Assembly: GCF_033153115.1 (NCBI RefSeq)
Contig: NW_026889758.1
Span: 8,060,001-8,124,000, forward strand
Direction: 5' to 3'
Origin: Saccostrea echinata
Taxonomy: Eukaryota
DNA: 64,000 bases
Shown: piece by piece, positions 53,579-62,908 of the stretch
How the letters are laid out: every line of letters begins with the position of its first letter
Numbering within the stretch: the stretch's first letter is position 1
Position numbers and translations under genes: made by a program
Notes under the pieces: model-generated
Told to the model about the DNA's origin: nothing
Databases searched by the model: none
What the model saw: the letters and a program-made list of their open reading frames with translations, nothing else

Positions 53579-56500
53579 TCATCTGTTGGTTGGACAACAG
53601 CATTGGTGGTTTGTCGAATGATAAAAACATCCCAGGCATTGGTGGATGTTCTGAACCTGGAAGCAGTCCTCTGTGAAAACAACGAAGAATATTCATTTTA
53701 ATATTTTCAAATAAATCTTCATATTTATTGGTAAAAACCATACAAGGCTCTCCAATTTTGCTAAAACTTTGTGGACAGGTTACACTATTCACAAGTACTG
53801 TATATCTCAGTACCGGTCTTGAAAGTAAGTTTTCCCCTGTAAGATCTTCCCCCAAAAACTCAGTGGTTCTAAGTATAGAACCCCCAACGTACCCCCCGAA
53901 AATAGCTCTAGAGAGTAGGATTCCCCCAATGCAAATCGAACATCAGAATCAATTTTCCGGGGGGATCTTACTCTGTGTAATTCACCAGAACTATCCCCCT
54001 TATGAAATATGTCTGTATTTAAATACAATGTATGAGGAGGAGGAGGCGACCTGTTCTTACAAGTGTCCCTCTGATATAATTTTTCTACAGTTGATCTCGC
54101 AGTAAACAATCTTAATAAAACTTCACAAAAAATAATCAAAAAGTCTAGTTGTGGATTCATTTAAAATTTTCAAAATAGCGACCAGTTCCATGGAAACATA
54201 CAAGTATATGAAAATTGAAAATTTAAATAGCATTTTTCATGGAAACAGGAACGAGAAATTTTATTTTGACTGGATTTCTCTCGAATTGAATTTCAAACTA
54301 CATGTACATAATATTGATGTGTAGATGTCTCTCTCTGTTTCTTGGGTTTAAATATCCAAAAAACCGCCGTCGCCATGGATCTAAAAATGTGTAAATATTA
54401 AAAAAATTGAAATTTTGCAAAACTTTGAGAGGGCATTTACTTTCTGCTTTCAAATCCGGTATTACATTGCTGGGGTCGAGTGGGTGAGTGGGGGAATACT
54501 TCTGCTATAGCTTGCACGTGCAATGTTTCTTATACTGTTTTGTTTTTAGGTTTTAGAAAATGTGGAACCTATCAATGATATAATTTTTAGCGTTTTACAA
54601 ACCCTTTGTAAATAGCACCGATCCGTAGATAAAATACCAGGCCGGTAGAGAGTAAACATATTTAATCTCTAGAGATGGCTGATATGAAGGTATAAATGTT
54701 TAATCGTTATGATATATTATTACATTTTTCCATAATGGAAGACAACTTCTTTATATACCCCCCCCCCCTTCAGGAAGTTATCCAATACAATGAAATACCG
54801 GTTTTGTAGAGTAGGACTTCTCCCATAGCCAGCTCCCCCCTGGAATCTGTACTCTAGAGTAGGATTTCTCCGTAGGGGAAATCTCACAATAGAGCCAAAT
54901 TCCCCCTCTTTCTTTCTCAGAGTAGGATTTCCCATCTTTTACACATTTTTGGTTCCATGGCAACTGCAGCTATTTTGGATATTTAAACACCTGGGCCCGT
55001 TTTACAAAAGAACTTACGACTAAGACCAAAATTTAATTCTGCTCATAACTTTCTAATTTACAAGAAATTTAAAACGGAATGTTGAGAGATATTTAACGTA
55101 GCAAATTTGAACAGAATCAGGAATTTTGCAAAATTTTAAAATGAGCTAAAATTTTTGGTCTTAGTCGTAAGTTCTTTTGTAAAACGGGGCCCAGAAACTT
55201 AGAGAGACACATACATATCAATAATATGTAAATGTAGTTTGAAATACAATTGGAAAAAATCAATTTAAAGTAAAATTCCTTTTTGTTTCCATGGATACAG
55301 TTGAAAATTTGTCCAACCGATTACATTGTACCATTTTTTTTTTCAGAAACGAGTTTCACCAGATGAAAATTTAAAATTTTAATGCTTCAAAAGTTACTGA
55401 GAAAAATGAGATTTAAAATTTTAATTTTTCATATGTCGTATGTTTCAGAGGAACTGGTCTCCATTTGAAGAAGGGACACTTGTAACAATGTGTCGCTCCC
55501 TAAGTACAGCCATGATATTTCATTGGGGGAAAAATGGCTTCGGGGGAAATCGCACTCTATGACTGTTAGTAACACAGAGTAGGATTTCCCACCCGAAAAA
55601 TTGAATCTGAAATGGGATTTCCGTGGGGGAAATCCTACCCTAGAAACATTTTTCCTTGTGGGAAATCCTACCCTACAGCCAGTTTTCCAGGGGGAAATCC
55701 TACTCTACAGCCAATTTTCCGAGGGGGGGGGGGGGGGTCGTACTCTAAAGTAAGTTTTCCGGGTGAAAAGATTTTAGGGGGGAAAGCCTTCTCTACAAGA
55801 CCAGTATTTCACAATTACTCACCTACATGTAAGCTGACGCCGTTTCTCCATTTTCTATACTTCTTTCAAAATGAATTCTCACTGATAAAAAGCTGGTAAT
55901 TTCGTTTTTAAAAACTTTTCTAGCTTCCAAGTTAACAACAATGTTTATATGCTTTTGAATTGGAAGCATTTATTTAAAGTAGACAGGCAAGTCTGTATCT
56001 TATGTATTATTCAGCGAACACTTTCTATGAAATGATGATCATTCACTCAAAATAATATAAAATAGGGAAAACATGTTGAATTCATTTGCTTTGAACCATT
56101 TGCAATAAAGTTAAGTACGGACTTGTTTAGTCTTGATTAAACGGAATAACTCTTTTTTTATATTACTCAGTTGCACTTATGGATAATTTTTGTTTGCAAT
56201 AGAAAAATAATATTTAAAAAAAATTATAGAATATAACTAGGATTTTGAAATACTCCTAAAATAACTGGATTGAATTATGCATGACAAGTTTACAGGCGTT
56301 GCTGTCATTAGCGAGGTTAACATTACTGCAAATGTCAGTTTGCAGTGGAAAATTTTCTGCCAAAAGTAGAGCCTCACTATTAAAAAATTTATCAAATCGG
56401 AATTATATAAGATATTTTTTGAAGTAATAAAACGCATGTCCAATGTCTGAATAACTAGTAGATTTATTTTTAATTATTCTTTTAAATTATTTTTTTCATG

Positions 56501-57049
56501 TTAAACTGTCAAAACATATTTCAGAATAAAATTTCATTTATCTTAATTTTTTCAGAAAGAATGTTCAAATAAATTTTCATGAAATGAAATTAAATATATT
56601 CTGTGTTAACATTGTTTTCCATTCGAGTAAAACGTTGCCGATGTTATTGTCCGATTTTCACATAATGAAAAAAGATTTAAAAATGAATGTAGTTTACATT
56701 ATTCAATTGCTGCAACAAAATTCTACAAACTAGCATAAACATCAAAACAATTTTATATCCCATATTACTTTTATGCAAGAGAAATATTTCAATGAAAATA
56801 TCAAAGAAAAATATATTAAGTATTTTTCTTACGTGCTTGGTCAGTATTTGATTCGTCTGGAAAAAGGAAACCTTTTAAAAATAATCAGAATTAAGTTTTA
56901 CAAGTGAAAATTTTCTCATTGCAAAAGTACTAATGATAAAAGTAATTGTAGAGTAAATAGAAGGTTGTTTCCGACTTACTTGCGCACTGAACGGACAATA
57001 ATGCATAGCAACTGAGAAGGAAAACACAGAAAATAAACCCCTGCTTCAT
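53579..57049 (-). CDS. Small secreted cysteine-rich peptide, paralog B
   Basis: Exon 57049-56980: MKQGFIFCVFLLSCYALLSVQCA|gtaagt (signal-peptide-like; upstream in-frame ATG at 57058). Exon 56856-56833 (ttccag / gtaaga): NESNTDQA. Last exon 53670-53579: DCFQVQNIHQCLGCFYHSTNHQCCCPTNR*. All phase 1. AATAAA at 53530-53525. Additional middle exons are possible. Confidence 0.65.
53808..54385. mobile_element. Truncated MITE, inverted copy of the 54792-55810 family
   Basis: Blocks such as GACCAGTTCC, ACAAGTGTCCCT and TTTAAATATCCAAAA are reverse complements of blocks in 54950-55490. Confidence 0.7.
54792..55810. mobile_element. Non-autonomous DNA element with a nested palindromic Harbinger-like MITE (~54994-55191)
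   Basis: TIR GAAATAC(C/T)GGT(T/C)TTGTAGAG, flanked by ACAAT direct repeats, with subterminal GGGGAAATCCTAC repeats. Nested GGCCCGTTTTACAAAAGAACTTACGACTAAGACC inverted repeat flanked by CTG/CAG. Confidence 0.8.
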
Positions 57050-61872: not shown

Positions 61873-62908
61873 TTAAACAGCGCAGCAACACATGTGTTTA
61901 GAGTAGTCGTAGAAACAACCCTGACAATGGAAGCGGTTAAATTCTAGCTTGCAGTCATCTGCAAGATGTAAAATCAAAATATAAATAATTATAAACATGT
62001 NNNNNNNNNNNNNNNNNNNNNNNNNNNNNNNNNNNNNNNNNNNNNNNNNNNNNNNNNNNNNNNNNNNNNNNNNNNNNNNNNNNNNNNNNNNNNNNNNNNN
62101 NNNNNNNNNNNNNNNNNNNNNNNNNNNNNNNNNNNNNNNNNNNNNNNNNNNNNNNNTTAACTTTAGTACCAAAAAATCAGTATTTTAACTAAAATTAAAA
62201 AAAAAAACATTTTTATTGAAGAAGATATTACCCGGAACAGTGATTACAAATTATAATGAGAAAAAGACAGTGATTGCCATTAAAACAATAAAAAATAATG
62301 TTTTTTTTTTTTTTAAAATAGATCCTTTTTTTATGTCTTTTGACAATCAGAGAAGAACTTACAGAGGATATTAGGAGTCGAACTAGTACCAACAATATTA
62401 GCACCGGCTTGTATGCCAACTTGGTCTTCCAATCCGATGTCTTTTAACACCCCTATAAAAATGAAATAAAGAAAGGCATCAAGAGGATTTAAATGACTAT
62501 TTGCTTCTAAATTAAACAGTTAAACACATCATCATCATTTTCTATTTACCTTGAGCGATCGTTTCAGGGACTTTTTGCTCCACGGGTTGTGGAACTCTTT
62601 GGATTGCTGAAATTGATGTAAATATTTTATAAAAATCATATTCAAGAAACCATTTTGTTTATTTCTACAATTTCAAGAACTTATTTTTTATTACAGAAAC
62701 TGTAATATTTTCATATATATGTACGAATATCTATATCTTCTTCAGATAAAGATTTGGAAAATATATCTTGATGCCATAATAAAAATTAAAATTTGAAGGA
62801 CGATTATAAGAAAAGAACCATCTAATTTCTGCTAAAAAATAAAACCCAGAAATACTTACATGCGGCGTACACATATCCTACAAGAACAAGAAGGAGAAAG
62901 ATCTTCAT
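61873..62908 (-). CDS. Small secreted cysteine-rich pre-pro-peptide, paralog A (93 aa from the visible exons)
   Basis: Exons 62908-62860, 62606-62550, 62452-62363, 61958-61873, all GT-AG phase 1: MKIFLLLVLVGYVYAA-SIQRVPQPVEQKVPETIAQ-GVLKDIGLEDQVGIQAGANIVGTSSTPNIL-YDCKLEFNRFHCQGCFYDYSKHMCCCAV*. The N gap lies in intron 3. Confidence 0.8.
62001..62156. other. Assembly gap (156 N)
   Basis: Run of N. Confidence 1.

Follow-up and report, generated by a model that had tools for sequence, protein, structure and literature searches.

What do two small cysteine-rich genes on an oyster contig encode, and what kind of partner would their products meet? The genes lie within a stretch of 64,000 nucleotides from Saccostrea echinata (assembly GCF_033153115.1, contig NW_026889758.1, positions 8,060,001 to 8,124,000, forward strand), referred to below as the window. 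A six-frame scan of this window found the spacing C-x8-C-x2-C-x8-CCC twice, both times on the minus strand, in gene A (61953-61882) and in gene B (53665-53594). The reading that is tentatively favored here, at somewhat less than even confidence, is that both genes encode secreted three-disulfide mini-proteins which would bind a conserved extracellular partner rather than lyse membranes. It is supported by the splicing of gene A at all three introns, by the neutral and conserved cores of the peptides and by the presence of two copies only.

Two genes with one cysteine framework

An earlier, sequence-only reading of this DNA had placed two such genes about 5 kb apart on the minus strand, and both were found as described, with 4.8 kb between the stop of A and the start of B. 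The identity that it reported, 12 of 25 aligned residues (the six cysteines plus D, N, G, F, Y and H), was reproduced. In both models the last exon does begin at a shared codon position, behind a phase-1 acceptor, and all introns of the two models are phase 1 with GT-AG ends. The N-terminal signal and pro regions cannot be aligned, as had been noted (local score z = 0.1, equalled in 896 of 2000 shuffles), and the long open reading frame (ORF) that overlies the B exon, 53942-53571, is indeed in a different frame. Both first exons are hydrophobic, which supports their description as signal-peptide-like, a judgment based on hydropathy. The exact motif occurred in none of 150 order-3 Markov copies of the window, and its analytic expectation is 5e-5 per window.

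Gene A is modeled with four coding exons and a precursor of 93 residues.

62987..62994, minus strand: TATA-like box upstream of gene A, from the sequence, with a presumed function
62860..62908, minus strand: coding exon 1, signal-peptide-like, 16 codons, phase-1 donor (9-residue hydropathy peak of 3.4; joint 62606/62860 in run X1)
62550..62606, minus strand: exon 2, 19 codons, where the N-terminal extension begins (model and run X1)
62363..62452, minus strand: exon 3, 30 codons, acidic extension (model and run X1)
61873..61958, minus strand: last exon, with the C-x8-C-x2-C-x8-CCC core, a 2-residue tail and the stop (motif, model, run X1 and profile search)
61516..61521, minus strand: polyadenylation-signal-like hexamer (sequence)

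Run X1 was the sole run listed, with a share of 0.06 and an RNA status that is a guess, and it was compared with the DNA over 53300-63100. One X1 contig (depth 53) omits 404, 97 and 253 bases; these gaps coincide to the base with the three introns predicted for A, GT-AG ends included, and the contig departs from the coding sequence at a single, synonymous position. Because the 184 letters of this contig before the last exon equal 37 + 57 + 90, the X1 form of A leaves no room for a further exon. Near the 3′ end of the gene, X1 contigs cover 61586-61795 and 61810-61958. A stretch of N (62001-62156) sits inside intron 3. Exon 2 is kept in a Pacific-oyster relative, P0001, described below (7 of 18 residues identical, 14 of 18 positive), and a genome DNA search with the A region returned its own locus only.

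Gene B is modeled with three coding exons and a predicted precursor of 61 residues; a further in-frame ATG stands at 57058.

56980..57049, minus strand: predicted coding exon 1, signal-peptide-like, phase-1 donor (model from sequence alone)
56833..56856, minus strand: predicted exon 2, 8 codons, acidic spacer (same kind of model; strong GT-AG sites)
53579..53670, minus strand: last exon, with the C-x8-C-x2-C-x8-CCC core, a 4-residue tail and the stop (motif; 18 of 30 residues identical to P0002)
53525..53530, minus strand: polyadenylation-signal-like hexamer, the first of four past the stop (sequence)

Run X1 does not cover gene B, and this speaks neither for nor against the gene. That B is a decaying or untranscribed copy, leaving A as the only working gene, appears very improbable. 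Such a state could be suspected from the prediction-based model and its 3.2-kb, repeat-filled last intron; against it, B has an open frame, strong splice sites and four polyadenylation hexamers, and a B-like exon exists in another source, with the identity given above. Between A and B, the synonymous value pS is 1.09 on 11.7 sites (saturated) and the nonsynonymous value pN is 0.32, both rough because they come from 25 codons. Since synonymous sites are saturated while pN is 0.32, the 12 shared residues, all six cysteines included, have been kept by selection, which argues that B codes. Together with the spliced form of A, this strengthens the proposal that both are real genes.

Relatives, copy number and neighborhood

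A two-sequence profile was compared with 1.84 billion protein representatives and gave two matches at E ≤ 0.001, P0001 and P0002, bearing out the narrow range first proposed for the family. P0001 is a 92-residue Magallana gigas precursor (UniRef A0A8W8HKT8) with a twin record, K1S537 (P0003), and its presence in UniRef means that the term "unannotated" fails for A. Its alignment with A spans the whole length of both (42 identities in 98 columns), and the similarity of the two extensions has a z of 11.5, reached by none of 2000 shuffles; P0001 is likely the orthologue of A. P0002 is an ORF that seems to come from a genomic read crossing a last exon of the B type. Its frame continues where B stops, and this run-on past the B stop would be an artifact of ORF calling. 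Two more sequences, P0007 and P0008, are P0001-type genomic ORFs which, by eye, stop matching the precursor at the positions of introns 1 and 3 of A.

Core identity is 17/24 between A and P0001 and 15/24 between B and P0002, compared with 11-13/24 for the cross pairs and 11/24 for A and B themselves. Because counterparts resemble each other more than cross pairs do, the duplication predates the species split, both copies having been kept. Ten columns are invariant across the five aligned sequences, which hold four distinct cores. On these sequence comparisons the core is the best-kept part of the precursors, and A and B form a long-established, stable pair instead of a hypervariable tandem array. 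The earlier picture of hypervariable inter-cysteine loops is therefore not sustained.

Nor did the larger tandem family that had been suspected emerge, since a scan of 264 kb around the locus revealed no third copy. Genome-wide, C-[FY]-x5-H-x-CC gave 51 matches (30 read in context, 2 with an internal stop and 19 judged to be copies of ones read), with the full motif only in A and B. CxGCFY gave 131 matches in the genome and 137 in the control, and among about 48 read of the 100 listed only A and B fit; C-[FY]-[FY]-x6-CC gave 178, of which 100 were listed and about 50 read. These pattern scans are blind to copies with an altered motif or with an intron within it. Genome protein and DNA searches for paralogues found the self locus only and are insensitive, A having failed to retrieve B. 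A word-based homologue search gave none for A and, for P0001, only itself; the alignment query gave four proteins.

A CCC match on C22 (L158:~5220-5400) was rejected as the antisense of a plakin-like exon. Elsewhere, in L015 (G000:C9:8020647-8020727), a very cysteine-rich plus-strand frame without a start is probably the shadow of an exon on the opposite strand.

The cores match no Pfam family, as had been expected; mytilin, myticin and macin were compared through this Pfam scan only. Among Protein Data Bank (PDB) sequences there was a lone match at E 2.2, to a nuclear-receptor zinc finger, and none for the profile, and all Atlas matches scored below 0.9. The literature searched did not describe the family or contain its motif strings; subscription papers, figures and preprint supplements lay outside its reach, and expression tables listing the gene under another identifier would escape it. 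The two-member family is thus apparently undescribed: its kind, the small secreted disulfide peptide, is familiar, and its framework is rare.

Around the pair, a class-I myosin gene with myosin head, TH1 and SH3 exons (window ~19400-46300, plus strand) lies tail to tail with gene B, and a highly repeated element with a weak reverse-transcriptase match sits between A and B (window ~58100-59400). Just upstream of gene A, several long minus-strand ORFs lacking a clear match in Pfam, one of them containing a cysteine-rich segment (L002:5803-8846), are possibly a receptor-like gene. Two TRAF-like genes with RING and MATH exons follow on the plus strand (L003:4887 to L004:5197 and L007:2261-7791), about 16 and 53 kb from gene A; between them, L005 holds an exon which we take to be CAP-like from its motif, without a Pfam match. 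Farther off in the window are Mutator-like transposase frames followed by an ORF like a DEDDh exonuclease or PML C-terminus (1135-4684, minus strand) and a tandem repeat whose unit is about 168 bases long, visible as recurring ORFs (~48400-50500).

Predicted fold and likeness to known peptides

The four cores have a net charge of -0.2 to +0.6 at pH 7 and contain 2-5 histidines and 3-6 aromatic residues. Acidic extensions precede the cores of A and B, and neither precursor has a dibasic cleavage site. Because the cores lack both net charge and such a site, a cationic, membrane-lytic role fits them poorly, and a cationic antimicrobial role is weakened by the near-zero charge.

AlphaFold2 predicts the same arrangement for A and B: a strand at Cys1, a short helical turn before Cys2 and, past Cys3, a hairpin that ends in the CCC-bearing strand. 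The predicted local distance difference test (pLDDT) is 75.7 for A and 78.6 for B, and the predicted template modeling (pTM) score 0.35 and 0.38. Fold searches found nothing at E ≤ 0.001, 30-residue models giving little power. The A model had no match at Z ≥ 2; the B model matched 3 of 48161 chains at Z 2.0-3.1, which does not show a new fold. The best of the B matches, itself weak, is to the HGF N-terminal PAN domain (Z 3.1, root-mean-square deviation 2.4, 30 aligned residues; B only). Cys2-Cys4 stand in register with the PAN hairpin cysteines in a profile built from the best 30 of 148 genome PAN matches, but the PAN profile score of 9.2 is no better than that of shuffles (reached in 20/60 and 13/60), and PAN domains, at about 76 residues, are unlike the short A and B cores.

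The two Magallana gigas records carry different UniRef names, "Hepcidin" for A0A8W8HKT8 and "Uncharacterized" for its twin. Hepcidin has eight cysteines and a furin site ahead of the mature peptide, in contrast to the six cysteines and absent dibasic site of A and B. No match to PF06446 was obtained at E ≤ 10 for P0001, P0003 or the two cores, and the Atlas hepcidin cluster scores 0.75, below its noise line. Because the Pfam hepcidin family is unmatched and the cysteine count disagrees, the name is likely an automatic mislabel; neither accession was found in the papers searched.

Comparison with described families shows how far the framework is distinctive. The claim that it differs from known ones holds against CRP-I and SCRiP peptides; it does not hold for the bare order C-C-C-CCC, which is already listed for the six-cysteine centipede peptides SLPTX8, whose function is listed as unknown (PMC4379518). 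These are venom peptides on multi-peptide transcripts, and A and B were compared with them by framework alone. Neither of the two profile matches among 1.84 billion proteins was named SLPTX8, and convergence would be the likelier cause of the likeness.

Cragi-CCCGS, a secreted Pacific oyster peptide with eight cysteines in 42 residues behind a KR site, has by eye the same C-[FY]-x5-H-x-CCC spacing in its middle (PMC8398477). Unlike A and B, it has, besides its eight cysteines and KR site, two cysteines past the triplet and no CxxC (PMC8398477). Genome motif searches found no counterpart of it. Mytilus CRP-I shares with A and B a bivalve origin, the order of signal, pro region and six-cysteine last exon, and a short core, of 25-38 residues (PMC4558851). 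Its consensus, C(X3-6)C(X1-7)CC(X3-4)C(X3-5)C, is not that of A and B, and it is their opposite in having a dibasic site, a basic isoelectric point, a conserved pre-pro region, a hypervariable mature part and a large family (PMC4558851). Cnidarian SCRiPs, likewise small and secreted, also carry CCC near the C-terminus, followed by a short tail; they differ in having eight cysteines, C(6)C(6)C..C..C(6)CCC, and no CxxC, compared with six cysteines and a CxxC in A and B (PMC10892658).

The big defensins deserve separate mention. They are marked by a beta-defensin fold and by disulfides 1-5, 2-4 and 3-6. Their spacing ends in CC, not CCC, and a cysteine module on a last exon behind a phase-1 intron is common among secreted animal modules, so that sharing this trait is weak evidence. 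A and B do show it, with all six cysteines on the last exon, and they resemble big defensins and trans-defensins in having six cysteines, three antiparallel strands (predicted ones in A and B) and both long and short precursors (PMC7203481). The cysteine-rich C-terminal region of big defensins is described as positively charged (PMC5484132), in contrast to cores of the A and B type.

Weighing the possible roles

In the mechanism proposed, the first exon would direct the product to the secretory pathway, and there the six cysteines would pair into the three predicted disulfides. The predicted fold of the core begins with a strand, continues through a short helical turn and closes with a hairpin, CCC lying on the second hairpin strand; the invariant Gly-Cys-Phe-Tyr and His would form either the core or a binding face. 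Since neither chain offers a dibasic site, the N-terminal extension (about 50 residues in A and about 9 in B) may remain attached in the mature peptide. The putative conserved partner would be either an enzyme or a receptor. Because the core is conserved and neutral and the family has two genes, a ligand or inhibitor that binds one fixed partner is favored over an arms-race lytic peptide.

Several points weigh against this reading. Neutral, conserved peptides can still be host-defense molecules. Only four distinct cores are known, too few to date the depth of conservation; the spliced A contig was obtained from a single run of a single study, with a guessed RNA status, and sequence and homology are the basis of the exon model of B. 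The signal peptides were judged by hydropathy, and the pTM scores are low, with one model of five per job above pLDDT 70 and the others at 51-65.

The principal alternative, which we consider unlikely though not negligible, is that A and B are host-defense peptides acting directly on microbes, possibly via a specific microbial target, as some defensins do, and resembling long and short defensin precursors. Their order of signal, acidic spacer and cysteine-rich last exon after a phase-1 intron, reported for big defensins as well (PMC7203481), and the predicted three-strand sheet would agree with such a role, and the two TRAF-like genes supply a weak context. The neutral cores argue otherwise, as do the lack of a defensin Pfam match, the absence of expansion in 264 kb or among the 51 genome pattern matches, and a mature part that is the most conserved, the reverse of CRP-I. 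A role as secreted Cys/His metal-binding peptides, with part of the CxxC and CCC reduced and holding Zn or Cu together with histidines, seems improbable. One histidine is invariant, in each of the four cores a second one occurs no more than two residues ahead of Cys2, the cores are histidine-bearing throughout, and oysters store much Zn and Cu; yet secreted chains normally oxidize their cysteines, the even count of six cysteines and the invariant Phe-Tyr suit a folded disulfide core, and no metallothionein or zinc-finger match rose above noise. Slightly less probable still are structural parts of mucus, shell matrix or adhesive cross-linked by inter-chain disulfides through CCC. A vicinal triplet could leave thiols for such links and the known range is narrow, but these are two short single-copy genes without repeats or low-complexity tracts.

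Returning to the ligand or inhibitor reading, a fuller version of it is possible, although we hold it with less confidence than the general one. A and B would then form a family of secreted oyster ligands or inhibitors that has not been described before. Its scaffold, held by three disulfides and containing three adjacent cysteines, would have no solved structure, and the family would comprise two ancient subtypes, one with a long and one with a short N-terminal extension. It might be a minimal offshoot of the PAN hairpin, or stand at the root of a broader C-[FY]-x5-H-x-CCC group to which Cragi-CCCGS also belongs.

The unsupported "Hepcidin" label could mislead work on iron control or immunity in invertebrates. 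Few six-cysteine peptides end in CCC, and how their cysteines pair is not obvious; a member of 27-29 residues would for these reasons be an inexpensive way to reach a small scaffold that may be new. A two-gene family that is both conserved and neutral would add a signaling or inhibitor class to oyster biology.

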